A stretch of DNA of 64,000 nucleotides, from contig CAVZSQ010000022.1 in assembly GCA_963777955.1 (NCBI GenBank), positions 544,001-608,000 of the forward strand, written 5' to 3'. This DNA comes from Calditrichia bacterium. Lineage in GTDB: Bacteria > Calditrichota > Calditrichia > JAJRVZ01. The translations under genes were made by a program, and so were the position numbers. The notes beneath the pieces are model-generated. The model had not been told where the DNA came from and made no database searches. It was given only the letters and a program-made list of their open reading frames with translations. Positions 4,605 through 17,588 of the stretch are shown here, piece by piece (position 1 is the first letter of the stretch; each line of letters starts with the position of its first letter).

Positions 4605-6156
4605 TTAATGTTTAAAATGCCGGACACCGGTAAAGACCATGGCCAGCTGGTGCTCATCAGCAGCCTGAATAACTTCCGGATCCCGCACTGAGCCCCCGGG
4701 CTGGGCAATGGCGGTGACGCCTGCTGCTGCCAGTGTATCCAGGCCGTCACGGAATGGAAAATATGCATCGGATCCAGCTACCGTTCCCCGCGTATCATGA
4801 TTTTCTTTTTTTGCTTTAGTGATAGCTAATTCGGCAGAGTCAACTCTGGACATCTGCCCGGCACCGACCCCGATCATCTGTTGTCCCTTGACCAGAACAA
4901 TGGCATTGGAATGGACATGCTTGGTCATGGTCCAGGCAAATTGCAGTGATTTCCATTCCTCTTTATTCGGTGCTCTTTTAGTCACGACTTTAGCCTGGTT
5001 TATATCAAAATTAACATTATCAAAAGATTGGAGCAGGAATCCCTCACGTACCGTACGCAGTTGCAATTTTGATTCGGCCGATAATCCCGGAGTATAGCGG
5101 ATCAGGCGCAGATTTTTCTTTTTGGTCAATAGAACCAGTGCTTCCTGATCGAATTCCGGTGCCAGAATACATTCCAGGAATGGTCCGGCTAATTCTTTGG
5201 CCAGCAGGGCATCAACCGGACGATTGAATCCAACGATTCCTCCGAAAGCAGAAACGGGATCGGAAGCAAATGCTTTTTTATAACTGTTCAGCAGTGAATC
5301 CGCCATGGCGGCACCGCAGGGATTATTATGCTTGATAATTACGGTTGCCGGTTCCTGCAATTCTTCGATCATATTCAGGACCGCATCCAGATCAAGAATA
5401 TTATTGTAAGATAATTCTTTACCGTGTAATTGCTCAAAATTATTCAAGGCTTTATTTCTGGCGGAACCATAGAAAGCAGCCTGTTGATGCGGATTTTCAC
5501 CGTAGCGTAAATCCTGCAACTTGATACCCTGAATGGTGATTTCCCGGGGAAAGGACTCAGCGTTTTTCTGCTGCTGGCGAAGATATCCGGCAATCAGGGA
5601 ATCATAACGAGAGACATGCTGAAAAACCCGCAGGGCGCACCGGGCCCGGAACTCGGCAGAGGTGTCCAGGTCATGCAGTATCCATTTCTTTGATCAAGTC
5701 AGCATACTGATCGGGATCAACCACAACCGTCGTATCGGCATGATTTTTCGCAGCAGCCCGTAATAAGGATGGACCGCCGATATCGATTTTTTCGATCGCC
5801 TGGGCCAGGGTGCAGCCCGGCTGACTGACCGTATCTTCGAAAGGATATAAATTTACCACGACCAGATCGATTGGGATTATTTGTTGTTTCTGCAGTTGGG
5901 CCAGATGTTCCGGAATCCGTTTGGCCAGGATTCCGGCGAAGATGACAGGATGCAGTGTTTTAACCCGGCCATCCAGAATCTCCGGGAATCCGGTCAGGTC
6001 GGAGATAGGCCTGGATTCTATCTGATTATCCTCCAGAATTTTCTGGGTGCCGCCGGATGAAATCAGTTCGACACCCCGCTGGCGCAAGGCCTGAGCGAGT
6101 TCGATGAGACCTTCTTTATTATATACGCTCAGTAATGCACGTTTAATTTTGGCCAC
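4605..6156 (-). CDS. purH: Bifunctional AICAR transformylase/IMP cyclohydrolase, split by a frameshift near 5675
   Basis: N-part [21 protein letters not shown]-part [36 protein letters not shown]; the gap reads [26 protein letters not shown] in the downstream frame. Confidence 0.95.
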
Positions 6157-8800: not shown

Positions 8801-10019
8801 ATGATCTATAGAATGATAGCATTTTTTATAATATTTACACTGGTCATTGCGCTGATCTATTTTTATATCTATCGCAGGTTGATTAAACCGCTGCAAATTC
8901 CCCGGAACTATAAACGGCTATTATGGATCTATATGTTGTTGACGCCCCTGTTGACCCCTCTTCCTTTTATATTACGATCGGGTGTGCTGGACAGAGACTG
9001 GGCGGGGGGTATGGCCTGGTTCGTCTATATCAACCTGGGATTTTTCTCTCTGGTTCTGGTACTGCTGGTCATGCGTGATCTGGGCCTCGGCCTTCATTCC
9101 CTCTATAAATACCTGACCGCGTGGTGGTCCGCAAAGCGAAAAAATAATTCTGTCGCCAGGCCAACCCCGGCATACAGTCCTGCGCGCCGCCAGTTCCTGA
9201 TGAACTCGGTAAATCTGGGAATTTTCGGGACGGCCGCGATCCTGAGCGGTTATGGATTGTATGAAGCCCGGCGCCGGCCTGTTTTGGAGGAGATCGAAGT
9301 ACCCATTGTCAATCTGCCCGCGGAATTCCTTAATTTCAGAATTGCTCAGTTCAGCGATGTTCATGTTGGTCCAACGATTAAACGCCGTTTTGTCGAATCG
9401 GTAGTGAATCAAATAAATCAACTGCAGCCCGATCTGATCGTCTGCACCGGCGATATGGTGGATGGCACGGTGGCGGAGTTAAGAAATGATGTTGAAGCCG
9501 CTCAAAGACCTGGACGCGCCCAGGGGAGTATTTTTTATTACCGGTAATCATGAATATTATTCCGGCGTCGAACCATGGCTCGACGAAATGCAACGGTTAG
9601 GCCTGACTGTTTTGCTCAATGACCACCGCTTGCTGGAGCAGCAAAACAGTAAAATCGTTATTGCCGGTGTTACTGATTATTCAGCGGGTCAATTTATACC
9701 CGCTCATGCTTCTGATCCGCACAAGGCAATACAGGGAGCCGAAGCGGTACCGGTGAAAATTCTACTGGCCCATCAGCCGCGGAATATCTTTGCCGCTGCC
9801 TCGGCGGGATATGATCTGCAAATCTCCGGACATACGCACGGGGGGCAATACCTGCCCTGGAAATATCTGGTGACGCTCAACCAGCCTTATATTGCCGGAC
9901 TGCATCGCCATGAGCATACCTGGATTTATGTCAATCGCGGTACCGGTTACTGGGGTCCGCCGTTACGTCTGGGTGTGCCTTCAGAAATAACTCTTTTCAA
10001 ACTTGTATCTGCTACATGA
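8801..10019 (+). CDS. Membrane-anchored metallophosphoesterase (YkuE/YaeI-like), frameshift near 9495
   Basis: N-terminal TM helices; SDVH, TGDMVD, GNHE, AHQP, SGHTHGGQ calcineurin-like motifs across two ORFs. Confidence 0.88.
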
Positions 10020-11521: not shown

Positions 11522-12919
11522 ATGGATTGGCTTACTATTTTAATCATTGGCGGAATTGTCCTGGTGGTACTGGGTTTATTAGTTGTACTGCTGCGCCTGC
11601 AATACATGCGGGTTGGACCAAATGAGATTTTGATTGTTTCCGGTGGCAGGAAGAACATAATCACTTTGCCGGATGGCTCCACAAAAGAAATAGGATTCCG
11701 GTATAAAATCGGCGGCGGCGCCTTTGTAAATCCGCTGACCAAGCGCGCGGAAAAAATGCTTATTGAAGTTATCCCGGTTCAATTCAAGAGTCCTGTGTGG
11801 AGAACCCAAAATGGTATTCCGATCATAGCTGAATATGCAGCCCAGGTGAGTGTCAATATCTCTGATTATGCTCTCTATCTGGCGATTACCCATTTTCTCA
11901 GTAGCGGCCGGGAAGGCATACAGGCTGTGGCCAGCACTATTTTAGAAGGAAGAGTGCGTGAGGTAATCGGTACCATGACAGTAGAACAAATTCTATCGGA
12001 ACGTAAAGAATTCACCGAGAAGGTCTTCCAGGGTGTGCAGATGGATTTGAATAACCTGGGTTTGATCATGCAGTCTTTTGCCCTGGAAGATGTGAATGAT
12101 ACGCAGGGGTATATTGAGGCCTTGAGTAAGCCGCAGGTCGCGGCCGCCAAGTATGAAGCCGTCATGGATCAATCGGAAAAAGATAAGGAAATTGCCATAC
12201 GCCTCGCCCAGGTCAAGAAAGAAAGCGAAATTGCCCGTCTGCAGGCTGATGCAGAAGTTGCCGCGAAATCCTGGGAAAATGAAATCAAAAAAGCTGAATT
12301 ACAGGTGAACGTAAATCAGAAACGCGCTCATGCCGACATGGCTTATGAATTGGCACGCTTTAAAATTCAGCAGGATTTGACCAAAGAACAATACGCGGTC
12401 AAAAAAGTCGAGATGCAGGAAACGACCAAACTGGAAGAGATGAATATCGAGAAGAAACAAAAAGAACTGGATGCCAATGTGATCAAGCCATCGGAAGCCC
12501 GGAAAAAACAGGTTATGGCTGAAGCGGATGCCGAAAGTTACAGAATCCTCACTGAATCCAAAGGAAAAATGGAAGCGAAAAAAGCCGAAGATGCAGCCGA
12601 AGCAGAAAGAATAAGACTGATCGGGCAGGCAGAGGCAGAATCGTTAGCCAGCCGGGCCAAAGCTTATGAAAAGTATAACCAGGCGGCGCTTTATGAAAGA
12701 ACTCTGGATAAATTACCGGAATTGGCTAAAAATATAGCCGAGCCGCTTTCAAAATTGGATAAGATCGTGATGATTGCAAGTGATGGGAAATTGGGCACCA
12801 GTAAGATCACCGGACAGGTAACAGAAATCCTGGCTCAGTTGCCCGAAGTAGTCCAGGCCCTGACCGGTGTCGATCTGAAAAAATTCATGAAGGATAAATT
12901 GAACAAAGATGAGAAGTAA
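11522..12919 (+). CDS. Flotillin / SPFH-domain membrane scaffold protein
   Basis: N-terminal TM, 'GPNEILIVSG', SPFH domain, AEA-rich coiled coil, 'IAEPLSKLDKIVMI'. Confidence 0.9.
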   Translation: MDWLTILIIGGIVLVVLGLLVVLLRLQYMRVGPNEILIVSGGRKNIITLPDGSTKEIGFRYKIGGGAFVNPLTKRAEKMLIEVIPVQFKSPVWRTQNGIPIIAEYAAQVSVNISDYALYLAITHFLSSGREGIQAVASTILEGRVREVIGTMTVEQILSERKEFTEKVFQGVQMDLNNLGLIMQSFALEDVNDTQGYIEALSKPQVAAAKYEAVMDQSEKDKEIAIRLAQVKKESEIARLQADAEVAAKSWENEIKKAELQVNVNQKRAHADMAYELARFKIQQDLTKEQYAVKKVEMQETTKLEEMNIEKKQKELDANVIKPSEARKKQVMAEADAESYRILTESKGKMEAKKAEDAAEAERIRLIGQAEAESLASRAKAYEKYNQAALYERTLDKLPELAKNIAEPLSKLDKIVMIASDGKLGTSKITGQVTEILAQLPEVVQALTGVDLKKFMKDKLNKDEK

Positions 12920-12967: not shown

Positions 12968-15299
12968 TTGAGTTCGGATCGAATTAAACATATCAGTACG
13001 TCGCCCACCCTCAAAATTGCCGCCAAAGCGATTATGATGAAACGGGAGAAAATTGACGTAGTAGATTTCAGTGTCGGCGAACCGGATTTTCCCACACCGC
13101 AAAATATAAAAGATGCCGCCAAGCGTGCTATCGACAGCAACTTTACCAAATATACCGCCAATGACGGAATAATTGAACTGCGCCAGGCTATTGCCAGGAA
13201 GTTTAAAGAAGATAATCAGCTGGATTATGCACTGAATCAGATCATCGTTTCCACCGGTGCCAAGCAATCCCTGCTGAATGTGGTGCTCAGTCTGGTTAAT
13301 CCGGGGGATGAGGTCATTATCCCGGCTCCTTACTGGGTTTCCTATCCGGAAATGGTAATTCTGGCGGAAGGAAAACCGGTGTTTGTCCCGACCAGTGAAG
13401 AAAATGCTTTTAAATTGACCCCGGAGCAACTGCAGCAAAATATTTCAGCCAGTACCCGCGCCCTCATTCTTTGCTCGCCTTCAAATCCGACCGGTGCGGC
13501 TTACAGCCGCTCAGAGTTGGAAGCGCTGGCGGAGGTGATCGTCAGCGAGGACATCTGGATTATTGCCGATGAGGTTTATGAGAAACTGGTTTATGATGAT
13601 TTCAAATTCACCAGTATCGCAGTCTATCAGTTCGAAACTGAAAGAGAAAACCATCGTGGTTAACGGTGTCTCCAAGGCATACAGCATGACCGGCTGGCGG
13701 ATAGGGTATGCAGCCGGGGACCGGGAAATTATTGAGGGTGCCAGCAAGATTCAAAGCCATAGCACGTCCAACCCTTCATCAGTATCCCAGTATGCCAGCC
13801 TGGAAGCCCTGAGCGGACCTCAATATGAGATTTCCAGAATGCGTACTGAGTTTGAAAAAAGAAGAAATTATGTCTTGTATAAACTGGGTACCATACCGGG
13901 AGTTACCTGTGTCAAACCGGAAGGGGCCTTTTATGTCTTCCCGAACATATCATCTTATTTTGGCAAAGAACATGCGGGTACGCTGATCCGCAATTCGTAT
14001 GGACTGGCCTATTATCTGTTAAAAGAGGCAAAAGTAACTCTGGTTCCCGGTGCTGCTTTCGGTTCGGACGAGCATATCCGGATATCGTATGCGACTTCCA
14101 TGGCCAACCTGGAAAAGGGCATGGAACGGATAGCAACTGCTCTGGGCAAATTGAAAACACCCATGAAGGTAAAGGGGATTCAACTGGCTAATACACGGAC
14201 CCGGGTACAGAAAAAAGTCACGATTGAATCTGCTTTGAATGCCGAGAAGCGCGAAGCCCTGGTTGCCGAAGCCGAAGCACAGTTGAAGTATGAAAATTAT
14301 TATGAATGGAATGCCAATATAAATGGTTTAATAATTCAGTTGCGCACCAATAACCGGCACCTTTATGATTTCTGGATCGAGAACTGGTATCCTTCGCAAC
14401 TGGAGGCCGACCTGGAACCTCACGGTATCATCTATGCCGTTGATGGAGCGGTGGGCCGGGAATCCTACGGCTTTTACAGCGCCGAAACAAGCACCGGCAT
14501 CCTGTTCAATACGGATCTGTACAGTTCCGTGCGTTCGCTGGCCCTGGCCATGGTCACCGATATCGGAGAACGGCTGTTTGATTTGCATGCGATCCGGGGG
14601 ATGACCGGTGATTATCAGGGCAGCGGTTTTGCCTTGATGGGCCCCAAGGGGACAAAAAAGAATGAGTTGTTTTTCGAATTACTGCGTTCCGACCAGGTGG
14701 CCTGGCATTCCACCGACCTGGCTTTTGCACGCTATGGCGGAGGAATTGCGGCCGCTGATCTGCCTGAACGTAAATTATACCTGATGACTTACGCAGCAAC
14801 CTTGTATGAAAAATTGATCCCGTTATTTGAACGCAGCAGATGTGAAAATGTCATTATCAATAAAGAAGACTGCAAACACAGCAACTGTCCCGATGCTGAG
14901 GAATGCCTGCTGGATAAAGGATTTCCGTACTGTTTCCAGGCATCGAGGGATTCCTATGCGCTGGTCGATCCCTACTGGTTGGGAGGCATGCAAAAGCATG
15001 TTAAACGGATCGATCTGCGGACAGTTTTTATTCTGAGAAATGAACCGGTCGGAGAAATAATCAAAAAACTGGATGCCCAGGAAGCGGTGCAGATCCTGGA
15101 GAGCGGTCTGTCCAGGGATAGCGGCAACCAGCCGTTTTATAATCCCCATTTAATCCTGAAAACACCGGAACGACTGGCGGTGCAGCGCAGATTATTCGAA
15201 CGCCTGTTCCAATCGGCCAAATGTTTTCTGGTCAATACCGGTAAAGCCCCGGTGGATGAGATAAGTCAGCAAATCATACACGCTATACAGAAGGGTTAA
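12968..15299 (+). CDS. Class I PLP aminotransferase (AspC/AspB-like) fused to a C-terminal HPr-kinase/PEPCK-like P-loop domain; frameshift near 13625
   Basis: GEPDF, GAKQ, SPSNPTG, DEVY, SKAYSMTGWRIG (PLP Lys), RISYA; reading frame continues ~375 aa past the normal aminotransferase end. Confidence 0.85.
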
Positions 15300-15309
15300 A
15301 ATTCAAATT

Positions 15310-17148
15310 ATGGCTACAGCAAATTATAATATCGAACAATATAAAAAATTCTATCAGGAGTTAATCCCGCTGTTAAAGGGTCCCAATATCAAAACCGTTG
15401 ATTTGGACTGGTTAGAATCTCATTCCCGTGCCTTCGGCAATAAAACCAAATATGGTTCTTATATCTGGTCGTCCAAGGTCTCCAGCCGCCTGGCTGAGAA
15501 GACGGTATATCTTGGCAGCGAACCGGTGCGCCTGGCCAATCCGAGCGATGTGCAGGTCAACCTGGTAAATCAGGCGCCGGCACAACTGGAAAAGGTATTG
15601 CACTGGATTAAAACTCTGCCGTTCGTACATATCCGGCGGCAAATGGGCTGGAATAGTTATTTTAATCCCATCTGTGATTTCTATGTGAGTACGGTTGATC
15701 CCAAAAATGTCCGGCTGGCCTATATGTGGGCCAGTTTACTCTTTGAACCGTCCAACCGGCCCGGACCAAATTTTATCATGCTGCACATTCCCGAAGAACA
15801 TACCATGCGTATGCAGATTTTATCCCTGCCGGAGCAAAACCTGAATATCGCCATGGGTACCGATTATCTGGGGGAGGATAAAAAAGGATTTTTGCGCCAG
15901 GGAATGTGGAGTGCCGATGGCGAAGGAATGCTCGGGTTGCATTCCGGGACCAAAATTGTAACCGTGCGGGATGCTGTGGATAATAAATTGAAGCACTATG
16001 GCGTATTCATGTTCGGCATGACGGCTACGGGCAAATCGACCTGGTCCTGCCATCAAATAGGTCTGGATCCCCGCCATGGTGAAAAAACCGAAGTATATCA
16101 GGATGATATTGTTTTTTTGCGTTCGGACGGTTCGGCCCTGGGGAGTGAAAATAATTTTTATGTCAAGACCGATGTGATCCCCGATCAGCAGGAAGCCATG
16201 TATTATGCACTGACTGATAAAAGTGCCTTACTGGAAAATGTCATGTTTTCGGCCAATGGGGAAATAGATTTCCTGGATGAAAGCCTGTGCGGTAACGGCC
16301 GGTCTGTGGTGTTCCGGGATAAATTGCGGGTGAAGCGGGATGGGAAGCTGATCGGGATAAGTACAAACTCCATAAATTTACCGACCCTGGATGATATGGA
16401 TGGTTTGATCTTTGCATTTATCACCCGCAGAAACACGATCATGCCCTTTGCCCAGGAACTTACTCCACAGCAGGGGATATTAGCCTATTTGTGGGGAGAA
16501 ACCACCCATAGTTTTGCTTCTTCTCCGGAGAAAGCAGGGGAATCTGTGCGGGTGGTAGGAACAGACGACTTCATCATCGGGCCGCGCGGGCATAAAGTCA
16601 ACAAATTTTACGACATTGTAAATTCCCTCATCGAAAAATATCCCCAGAAGATAAAATTCATGATGTACAATACCGGTGGTATCGGCGAGATAATTGAAAT
16701 CAAGCAGGAAAACGGGACCAAGAAAAAGAATCTGATTCGTAAGACCAGTCGTGTACCGATCACGCTGATGGCGGCGATACAGCGCGGCGACCTGAGAAGA
16801 AGTAACAGTTATGAAAAAGGGTTGCTGGGGACCCGGTCATTAGTGAAGGTGGAGGGGAAGGATCTGGCCGATTACGATTTGAGTAAATTTTATAGCCAGG
16901 AGCAAATCGATTATTATTTGAAAGACCTGGTGGAAGGCCGGAAAAAACATACGGAATTAATCGCAGCCGAAGGATTACGGTCCGAAATCATTCGCGATGC
17001 AGAACGGTCATATCAAATCGACCGGACGCGAAGCAAGACCTTCCAGGCTGCTTACAGCGGAAAGCCGGAAAAACAACCGGTGGTACTGGTTAAATCCGAC
17101 GAACCGGTGAGTCGCCCCCGTCGTCCGGGTGTCTGGCACTGGCGGTAG
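15310..17148 (+). CDS. pckA: Phosphoenolpyruvate carboxykinase (ATP)-like protein, divergent
   Basis: GTDYLGEDKKG, LGLHSG, P-loop GMTATGKST, QDD, E.NFYVKT, LLENV, NGR, YNTG motifs of ATP-PEPCK. Confidence 0.78.
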   Translation: MATANYNIEQYKKFYQELIPLLKGPNIKTVDLDWLESHSRAFGNKTKYGSYIWSSKVSSRLAEKTVYLGSEPVRLANPSDVQVNLVNQAPAQLEKVLHWIKTLPFVHIRRQMGWNSYFNPICDFYVSTVDPKNVRLAYMWASLLFEPSNRPGPNFIMLHIPEEHTMRMQILSLPEQNLNIAMGTDYLGEDKKGFLRQGMWSADGEGMLGLHSGTKIVTVRDAVDNKLKHYGVFMFGMTATGKSTWSCHQIGLDPRHGEKTEVYQDDIVFLRSDGSALGSENNFYVKTDVIPDQQEAMYYALTDKSALLENVMFSANGEIDFLDESLCGNGRSVVFRDKLRVKRDGKLIGISTNSINLPTLDDMDGLIFAFITRRNTIMPFAQELTPQQGILAYLWGETTHSFASSPEKAGESVRVVGTDDFIIGPRGHKVNKFYDIVNSLIEKYPQKIKFMMYNTGGIGEIIEIKQENGTKKKNLIRKTSRVPITLMAAIQRGDLRRSNSYEKGLLGTRSLVKVEGKDLADYDLSKFYSQEQIDYYLKDLVEGRKKHTELIAAEGLRSEIIRDAERSYQIDRTRSKTFQAAYSGKPEKQPVVLVKSDEPVSRPRRPGVWHWR

Positions 17149-17174
17149 CAGCGGGTTACTAAGGGGAAAAGGAG

Positions 17175-17588
17175 ATGGAACAGACTCTGGCGATCATCAA
17201 ACCGGATGCGGTTTCAGACCGATTAATGGGTGAAATTATCCGGCGCCTGGAAAACGAGCATATCCGGATTGTGGCGATGCGCCTGGAAAAATTGGATCAG
17301 CGGCGGGCCGAAGGATTTTATTATATTCATCGCAGCAAACCGTTTTTTGCCTCGCTGATAAAATATATGACTTCCGGGCCGGTGCTGATCATGGTTTTAC
17401 AGGGGGCGGAGATTATCAAGCGCTGGCGGGATCTAATGGGCACTACCAATCCGGCGCAGGCAGGCCGGGGCACAATCCGGGGTGATTTTGGCAATGATAT
17501 TGAACGCAATGTGGTACACGGGTCAGACTCTAAAGATTCCGCAGTCTATGAAATCAATTATTTTTTTAAAGGCAGTGAGATATATTAA
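17175..17588 (+). CDS. ndk: Nucleoside diphosphate kinase
   Basis: TLAIIKPDA, GTIRGDF, NVVHGSDS. Confidence 0.97.
   Translation: MEQTLAIIKPDAVSDRLMGEIIRRLENEHIRIVAMRLEKLDQRRAEGFYYIHRSKPFFASLIKYMTSGPVLIMVLQGAEIIKRWRDLMGTTNPAQAGRGTIRGDFGNDIERNVVHGSDSKDSAVYEINYFFKGSEIY

Follow-up and report, generated by a model that had tools for sequence, protein, structure and literature searches.

In the 64,000-nt stretch of a Calditrichia bacterium analysed here (hereafter the window; assembly GCA_963777955.1, contig CAVZSQ010000022.1, positions 544,001 to 608,000), an aspartate-type aminotransferase continues in frame into an extra domain of 378 residues that is predicted to have the fold of phosphoenolpyruvate carboxykinase (PEPCK) and whose catalytic positions are consistently altered. 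The fusion is real, strong purifying selection acts on its extra domain, and the gene stands between a flotillin gene and a divergent PEPCK gene, both of which recur with it. We give roughly even odds (a probability of about 0.5) to the reading that the domain is a non-catalytic partner of the adjacent PEPCK, acting by docking, allostery or both, within a flotillin/fusion/PEPCK unit that is acquired and lost as a block. Positions are in window numbering throughout, and labels beginning with P, L and G denote the proteins, loci and genomes compared. Four genes of this region lie on one strand, namely the flotillin, the aminotransferase (in two frames), the PEPCK-like gene and ndk, with gaps of 10 bp between fusion and PEPCK and 26 bp between PEPCK and ndk; these gaps, the coordinates and all motifs quoted in a first-pass annotation of the window, made from the sequence alone, proved correct.

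Reality of the fusion and its aminotransferase half

The AspC-like open reading frame (ORF) starts with a TTG at 12968 and is interrupted near 13622, leaving two frames (12968-13663 and 13563-15299), the second of which runs free of stops through the end of the aminotransferase (~14162) and on into the extra domain. The first-pass annotation had placed a frameshift near 13625, and we observed that the break is a single extra base: in the alignment with an intact relative (P0002, 776 aa, 98% identical), residues 1-218 match 12968-13621 and residues 219-776 match 13623-15296, skipping one base, and in two other sequencing runs (X1 and X4) three contigs have one base fewer at 13623-13626, while runs X2 and X5 have no depth at this base. 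Since purH and a metallophosphoesterase gene, both less than 10 kb away, are also each split into two ORFs (4605-6156 and 8801-10019), the extra base is likely an assembly error of this genome, whose assembly seems prone to indels.

A search with the domain returned 686 proteins, from 317 to 1012 aa long; of the 120 best, 110 are full-length fusions of 740-794 aa, and five of the six short homologues inspected start with the tail of an aminotransferase. A stop or start between the two parts, which would have undone the fusion proposed in the first pass, was looked for and not found: the gene is one in-frame ORF with no stop at the domain junction in 31 of 33 related bacterial loci, the exceptions being one locus with its own frameshift within the aminotransferase (L003) and one that begins inside the gene at a contig start (L007). 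By source label the carriers include Calditrichota, Aminicenantes, Ignavibacteria, KSB1, Zixibacteria, Gemmatimonadota and Acidobacteriota, the cultured Caldithrix abyssi has a fusion of 782 aa, and the nearest named loci come from Calditrichota metagenome-assembled genomes (MAGs; L001, 94% identical). Against L001, the ratio of nonsynonymous to synonymous substitution rates (dN/dS) is 0.027 for the extra domain and 0.03-0.07 for the aminotransferase halves and the flotillin. Several frameshifts near the locus might make the fusion look like an indel artefact or a neutral relic, yet the sole indel lies within the aminotransferase and away from the junction, and together with the full-length homologues and the low dN/dS this reduces that explanation to a negligible chance. 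Databases label the fusion only as an aminotransferase, and the domain is therefore invisible in annotation.

Judged by its residues and closest structures, the N-terminal half is predicted to be an aspartate aminotransferase of a subgroup Ib-like type. Its best solved relatives are the aspartate aminotransferases 6f35, 1j32, 6f77 and 1bkg (full-length, E 1e-113 to 1e-92), and it carries the residues of a fold-type-I, pyridoxal phosphate (PLP) dependent enzyme of subgroup Ib, with PLP Lys236, Asp201, Tyr204, Asn173, Arg244, Arg371, Lys99 and Thr14 invariant in 68 fusions. The likeness to subgroup Ib enzymes and to the bifunctional aspartate/prephenate aminotransferases (5wmh) is full-length and includes the PLP and substrate residues, but unlike the window fusion none of these solved enzymes (6f35, 6f77, 1j32, 1bkg, 5wmh) has a C-terminal domain. 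We take Lys99 to be the Lys109-type residue for acidic substrates; the Lys12-type residue, presumably tied to prephenate activity, is Ser in the window enzyme and Gly in the consensus. Scanned separately, the two halves of the split gene scored 258 and 176 bits against the equivalog NF004769 (cut-off 617), and paralogues within the same genome are at most 29% identical. In another genome an aminotransferase match lies within a 1245-aa open frame (G036:C1:2118163), which may be a further fusion or just have an extended open stretch upstream.

Predicted fold and altered active site of the extra domain

The extra domain gave no Pfam or NCBIfam match, and a single-sequence search against PDB sequences gave nothing under E 1.4. 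With an AF2 model of the domain (pLDDT 94.4, pTM 0.92), Foldseek ranked ATP-PEPCKs first (E ~1e-16, TMq 0.67-0.77), and a wide VIA search covering 48,161 chains placed T. cruzi PEPCK on top (1ii2; Z 28.8, 341 of 378 residues aligned, root-mean-square deviation 2.9), followed by GTP-PEPCK (22.1), Euglena complex I subunit E2 (21.9) and PPi-PEPCK (14.8), with four HPr kinases at Z 12-13 and the background at 5.1 and below. In hhalign, the domain profile aligned with that of the neighbouring PEPCK over 296 columns at a probability of 97.3%. Because the PEPCKs match over nearly the whole length and the HPr kinases only over residues 140-378, the domain is predicted to form a compact, two-lobed PEPCK fold that goes beyond a bare HPr kinase core. 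The HPr kinase/PEPCK-like P-loop layout described in the first pass was thus right about the P-loop fold, on which Foldseek, VIA and hhalign agree, but too narrow, as the model shows the two-domain PEPCK fold. The domain superposes on ATP-PEPCK (PckA, PF01293; 1ii2, 1aq2, 2pc9) with the same order of motifs, but is ~150 aa shorter, only 13-15% identical, carries an insert of four cysteines (Cys4) and has no equivalents of His232, Lys213, Asp268 and Arg333. With the C-terminal domain of HPr kinase/phosphorylase (PF07475; 1jb1, 1ko7) it has the P-loop core in common, but differs in its additional 140-aa N-terminal PEPCK-like lobe and its altered motifs; no HPr (ptsH) gene was found among the conserved neighbours of the fusion loci.

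The catalytic residues of E. coli PEPCK have established roles, and in its numbering the hhalign register pairs Arg124 with Lys212, Ser125 with Lys213, Arg145 with His232, Lys165 with Gly253, Lys166 with Lys254, Asn167 with Thr255, Thr184 with Asp268, Asp185 with Asp269 and Tyr265 with Arg333. Across 121 sequences (the window and its 120 best matches), Arg145 at the position of the catalytic His occurs in all and Arg124 in 120; the P-loop Lys166 is likewise invariant, and Gly occurs at 165 only once; the first Asp of the DD pair (184) is found in none, and every sequence has Asp or Glu at 185. The five commonest residues at position 265, which together account for 110 sequences, are His, Tyr, Ala, Phe and Met, with no Arg among them. 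The Mn ligands of PEPCK (Lys213, His232, Asp269) are not retained as a set, Ser125, Arg145 and Asp/Glu185 standing in their places. Kinase-1a GxxGxGK(T/S) and kinase-2 DD motifs are missing, as are the catalytic His, GxxGxGKS and DD of HPr kinase (here IRG, GPKGTKKN and HSTD), and the PEPCK family hidden Markov models do not match. The altered catalytic positions noted in the first pass therefore hold across the family, with one qualification concerning Walker A, where the loss of Gly is general and the Asn is a local variant (5 of 121, with Thr or Ser at position 167 in the other 116).

To call the domain dead, as the first-pass annotation did, goes too far, since little or no variation is seen at the P-loop Lys, at the second Asp/Glu or in the E-R-K and E-N motifs; in all, at least 119 of the 121 sequences agree at 71 of the domain's 378 positions, including K166, E202-R203-K204 and E228-N229. 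As lost ligands have become invariant Arg and so many positions are near-invariant, the domain is, on its sequence, disarmed in a consistent way and not decaying. Its Cys4 insert, in which C242H co-varies with C257S/G in 18 sequences, is likely a metal (Zn) site or a set of disulfide pairs.

Linkage to a second PEPCK and a flotillin

The neighbouring gene is predicted to encode a divergent ATP-type PEPCK with all catalytic residues. It scored 73.8 bits against PF01293 (cut-off 26.5), 273 against NF006821 (cut-off 369) and 23 against TIGR00224 (cut-off 590), and has equivalents of R65, Y207, E210, K212, K213, H232, K254, D268, D269 and R333, the register being set partly by motif position (R65, R333). 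In its own numbering, R60, Y186, E189, K191, K192, H211, K242 (of GK), D265 and D266 (of DD), E309 and R331 are invariant in 25 orthologues. NF006821 was tried as a marker of this subfamily and rejected, as it also gives matches in E. coli and others. Behind a variable linker, all 25 bacterial orthologues end in a basic-aromatic, RPRRPGxWRWR-like tail, which could be a membrane or partner-binding motif and did not appear among the most frequent C-termini in the archaeal PEPCK fusions described below. The flotillin has both an SPFH and a flotillin domain above cut-off (PF01145, 77.8 bits; PF15975, 28.2 bits) and reached 285 bits against the FloT equivalog (cut-off 700); a search for an NfeD partner gave a single match, on another contig.

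The link to the adjacent PEPCK put forward in the first pass is conserved, both in gene order and, as described below, in genome content. The PEPCK gene adjoins the fusion in 29 of 33 loci, following it in 27 and lying inverted upstream in two; among the other four, the genomes of L013 and L014 hold the PEPCK elsewhere. The flotillin gene, which the first pass had overlooked, lies upstream of the fusion in 28 of the 33, and four of the other five loci end at contig edges. Nucleoside diphosphate kinase (NDK), by contrast, was counted there as part of the module and is rejected here as a member, with ndk adjoining the PEPCK gene in two of the 33 loci. Many of these loci are kin, and the counts are therefore not independent.

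Among 61 genomes of the window's class, Calditrichia, 18 carry the domain, and exactly these 18 also have the divergent PEPCK (a weak match in a 19th being canonical pckA) and a close flotillin orthologue (55-92% identity), seven further genomes having only distant flotillins (26-32%). The module is patchy even within families (3 of 9 and 11 of 15 genomes), and aminotransferase matches occur in 49 of the 61. Five genomes of the window's own family (G004, G006, G007, G008, G009) have an unfused aminotransferase of 397-403 aa directly beside a DUF1232 gene, a type of gene that in the window comes after ndk. In three of these (G004, G007 and G008, with enzymes of 399-403 aa), domain, PEPCK and flotillin are all absent, and in a quick maximum-likelihood (ML) tree their enzymes are sister to the window type (SH-aLRT 99) inside the fused clade (98). 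This nested position indicates that domain, PEPCK and flotillin were lost jointly while the aminotransferase was kept.

Canonical pckA is present in 47 of the 61 genomes, including 15 of the 18 module carriers; it was not found in the carriers G000, G001 and G003 (92, 92 and 80% complete), and PEPCK_GTP in none of the 18. The idea that the divergent PEPCK replaces pckA is therefore rejected, and the module would usually be a second, specialised PEPCK system. In three genomes without the module (G059, G049, G005), another class I aminotransferase of 405 aa abuts canonical pckA (L133:2984-5847, L134:10366-13229, L135:1529-4386), an independent sign that the two activities pair.

Relatives of the domain and its possible roles

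A profile-free search of 50% cluster representatives yielded 177 relatives of the domain. Among them are stand-alone proteins of 320-400 aa from archaea and scattered bacteria (P0130, P0132, P0136, P0155 and others; L034:5926-7176, L035:1710-2900, L036-L115) with intact SIHG, APTGTGKST and HSDDW motifs. Of 29 aligned, 24 keep the His, the Gly-Lys-Ser/Thr and the Asp/Glu-Asp, and 25 the equivalent of Arg333; most have Ser at the Lys213 position, suggesting that the ancestor was an unnamed PEPCK-fold kinase family and not PEPCK itself. Annotated as hypothetical proteins, they share HG, GxGK(S,T) and DD with HPr kinase and match PF07475 weakly, their Atlas clusters carrying this family on 12-18% of members, and they are likely kinases, sized between HPr kinase and PEPCK. 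Some of them also have the Cys4 insert, which a separate, more degenerate stand-alone branch (P0179, P0218, P0227, P0236) retains. Further members include proteins of 450-570 aa with insertions, most of them motif-intact (P0173, P0177, P0182, P0220, P0221, P0233) and one of 754 aa with an intein (P0216). The window's own genome has another weak match to the family profile (G000:C21:17418-18455, minus strand, E 1e-6).

Of 80 metagenome loci with intact stand-alone relatives, 23 have a class I aminotransferase gene, all of them among the 30 closest to P0132 (L036-L065) and none among the other 50; it lies on the opposite strand ~0.1-2.8 kb upstream (e.g. L050:3662-4792, minus strand), often with an M3-peptidase-like gene near, and these 23 loci probably represent one lineage. 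None of the 80 has a separate PEPCK gene, the weak matches being the query gene itself, and none a flotillin match. Among 71 Bathyarchaeia genomes, 27 have a member of the family, three the PEPCK of the type considered here and one both, as a fusion (G091). A link between the intact stand-alone proteins and PEPCK is therefore rejected; they evidently work without it, and this type of PEPCK can in turn exist where the domain is missing.

A different architecture emerged with the N-terminal part of P0139 as query. The 104 proteins found (494-1574 aa) comprise 16 aminotransferase fusions and 88 proteins in which the domain is fused directly to PEPCK (P0139, P0272-P0358), mostly 880-910 aa long and annotated as PEPCK with the N-terminal domain unannotated. 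Those with a named source are mostly from Helarchaeota, Hodarchaeota, Lokiarchaeota, Freyarchaeota, Bathyarchaeia and Altiarchaeota, with a few bacteria. In these fusions the PEPCK half remains intact and shares 41% identity with the window PEPCK. In the domain half, Arg124 occurs in 86 and Arg145 in 87 of the 88 proteins, the Cys4 insert is absent throughout, and the residue at the P-loop Lys position drifts (K 37, R 25, I 17, V 8). Aminotransferase-fused and PEPCK-fused domains form one clade each, which are sisters with a support of 81 in an ML tree of 30 rows (22 of 52 being omitted as compositional outliers, long branches or redundant) and whose sister relation FastTree left unresolved on all 52. 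An AF2 model of one natural fusion (P0275, 85 rows; pLDDT 88, pTM 0.65) gave no indication of a confidently fixed pose between the domains, and a complex prediction of the window's PEPCK with the domain returned 0.00 and 0.00; neither result counts for or against binding.

PEPCK is an enzyme of the phosphoenolpyruvate (PEP)-oxaloacetate node, and the following route can be envisaged. Without equivalents of His232, Lys213, Asp268 and Arg333, the domain would be incapable of metal-dependent phosphoryl transfer, and the invariant Lys166, Arg124 and Arg145 would still provide a positively charged pocket in which an anionic or phosphorylated ligand such as PEP, oxaloacetate or a nucleotide phosphate could bind. 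The aminotransferase would turn aspartate into oxaloacetate and the neighbouring PEPCK would convert this to PEP, or the pair would run in the reverse, ATP-conserving direction, so that flux might go from aspartate to PEP (gluconeogenesis from peptides) or from PEP to aspartate with a gain of ATP. We infer that the domain may bind PEPCK and allow channelling, tethering both enzymes, or tune PEPCK through its ligand, in either case limiting the loss of labile oxaloacetate. As the weakest step, we speculate that the flotillin and the basic-aromatic PEPCK tail could put the unit at the membrane.

That the domain acts on PEPCK, and not only on the aminotransferase, is suggested by its tracking PEPCK in gain, loss and fusion. 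A sensor of PEP, oxaloacetate or a nucleotide that regulates its own aminotransferase alone, with PEPCK merely co-transcribed, would suit the covalent attachment, the two Ignavibacteria MAGs discussed below and the aminotransferase near the stand-alone gene in 23 of 80 loci, but it leaves the domain disappearing exactly with PEPCK and flotillin where the aminotransferase stays, as well as 88 proteins that carry the disarmed domain on PEPCK with no aminotransferase attached, and we hold it to be unlikely. We are similarly sceptical of a rebuilt, active enzyme in which the invariant Arg replaces the metal in a new reaction, for instance metal-free decarboxylation or tautomerisation of oxaloacetate, or HPr kinase-like phosphoryl transfer to or from PEPCK or flotillin. 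The near-invariance of so many positions, among them the acidic residue at 185, the seemingly selected Arg substitution and the intact kinase motifs of the ancestral family all speak for such an enzyme; against it, neither metal site is intact, another residue has taken the place of the P-loop Gly, and the drift of the P-loop Lys in the PEPCK-fused branch favours a binding or structural role.

Still less probable, at odds we consider slim, is a purely structural scaffold for oligomerisation or for tethering to flotillin, with no role for a ligand. The exact co-occurrence with flotillin fits it, although the intact stand-alone loci lack a flotillin match and the positions of the former active site rank with the best conserved, which a scaffold would not need. 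It also has a precedent in NDUEG2, the PEPCK-like subunit of Euglena complex I (8j9h), which serves in a larger assembly and is judged unlikely to be functional (PMC10884005). NDUEG2 was the sole inactive PEPCK-fold subunit found, matching our domain at the VIA score given above, and differs in being a eukaryotic respiratory subunit with 9% identity, a truncated C-terminal domain and no aminotransferase or active PEPCK partner.

Several observations weigh against the partnership with PEPCK that we prefer. Two Ignavibacteria MAGs (G063 and G066; loci L006 and L007) carry the fusion, and searches of both found no divergent PEPCK and no such flotillin. Two of the three Bathyarchaeia genomes with this type of PEPCK have no detectable domain, which therefore is not an obligatory PEPCK subunit. 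The Rosetta-stone link provided by the direct fusions may be convergent, because the two fused clades are separate and their sister relation is so modestly supported, and the shared presence of the three parts may result from related genomes passing on one operon as a block. Lastly, deeper-branching fusions (P0125, P0363, P0366) retain parts of the canonical kinase motifs.

A broader picture, which we find rather doubtful as a whole, would extend the partnership to a flotillin-anchored aspartate-oxaloacetate-PEP metabolon across several bacterial phyla, in which a disarmed domain, sensing PEP or oxaloacetate by means of arginines at the former metal site, docks the aminotransferase on a dedicated second PEPCK, is fused straight to PEPCK in Asgard archaea and Bathyarchaeia, and descends from undescribed small PEPCK-fold kinases structurally between HPr kinase and PEPCK.

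Precedents and further features of the locus

Pseudo-enzymes such as HisZ and the AdoMetDC prozyme serve as regulatory subunits. As in those systems, an inactive homologue is kept beside its active relative and would regulate or assemble it; the domain studied here differs in being fused to the upstream pathway enzyme, an arrangement for which we found no PEPCK case in the literature. In the full-text literature searched, whose coverage leaves out most subscription journals, there was no description of the fusion or the module and no protein partner or pseudo-enzyme regulator of a prokaryotic PEPCK. The proposed type of partner is familiar, and for this domain and module we found no published description. 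With the domain on the upstream enzyme in bacteria and on PEPCK itself in archaea, the system lends itself directly to tests of oxaloacetate channelling or of allosteric control and would link flotillin to a step of central metabolism. It also brings to light the unnamed small proteins of PEPCK fold, likely kinases whose motifs are intact, with a family member in more than a third of the 71 Bathyarchaeia genomes.

Table 1. Features of the flotillin/fusion/PEPCK locus, in window numbering.
Feature	Positions	Strand	Evidence
Flotillin (SPFH/Band_7 + Flot), 465 aa; conserved first gene of the module	11522..12919	+	Pfam PF01145 + PF15975
Predicted aspartate-type PLP aminotransferase, class I (subgroup Ib-like), ~398 aa; N-terminal part of the fusion	12968..14162	+	PF00155 in both frames
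Single extra base causing a frameshift; likely assembly error	13622..13626	+	P0002 and L001 intact; X1 and X4 contigs one base shorter
Predicted PEPCK-fold pseudo-kinase domain, 378 aa, in frame after the aminotransferase	14163..15299	+	AF2, Foldseek, VIA, hhalign, dN/dS
Rebuilt active site of the extra domain: Arg124, Arg145 (catalytic His position), P-loop, HSTD	14532..14717	+	Conservation in 121 sequences
P-loop GPKGTKK(N) of the extra domain	14640-14663	+	hhalign register against PEPCK
HSTD motif of the extra domain	14706-14717	+	hhalign register against PEPCK
Cys-x4-Cys-x5-Cys-x8-Cys insert in the extra domain	14871..14933	+	CCCC in 102/121 sequences
Divergent ATP-type PEPCK, 612 aa, catalytic residues intact	15310..17148	+	PF01293, E 1.5e-20
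Basic-aromatic C-terminal tail of PEPCK, RPRRPGVWHWR	17113-17145	+	Present in 25/25 orthologues
Nucleoside diphosphate kinase (ndk), ordinary neighbour	17175..17588	+	PF00334

Scans for promoters (21 against 13.8 ± 4.9 expected) and terminators (11 against 8.2 ± 2.8 expected) were uninformative. A second ndk lies elsewhere on the same contig. In loci of the Aminicenantes type (L008, L022-L025, L027, L028, L030-L033), a gene for a GmhA-like SIS-domain protein converges on the 3′ end of the PEPCK gene, which we regard as synteny within that clade and not as part of the module.

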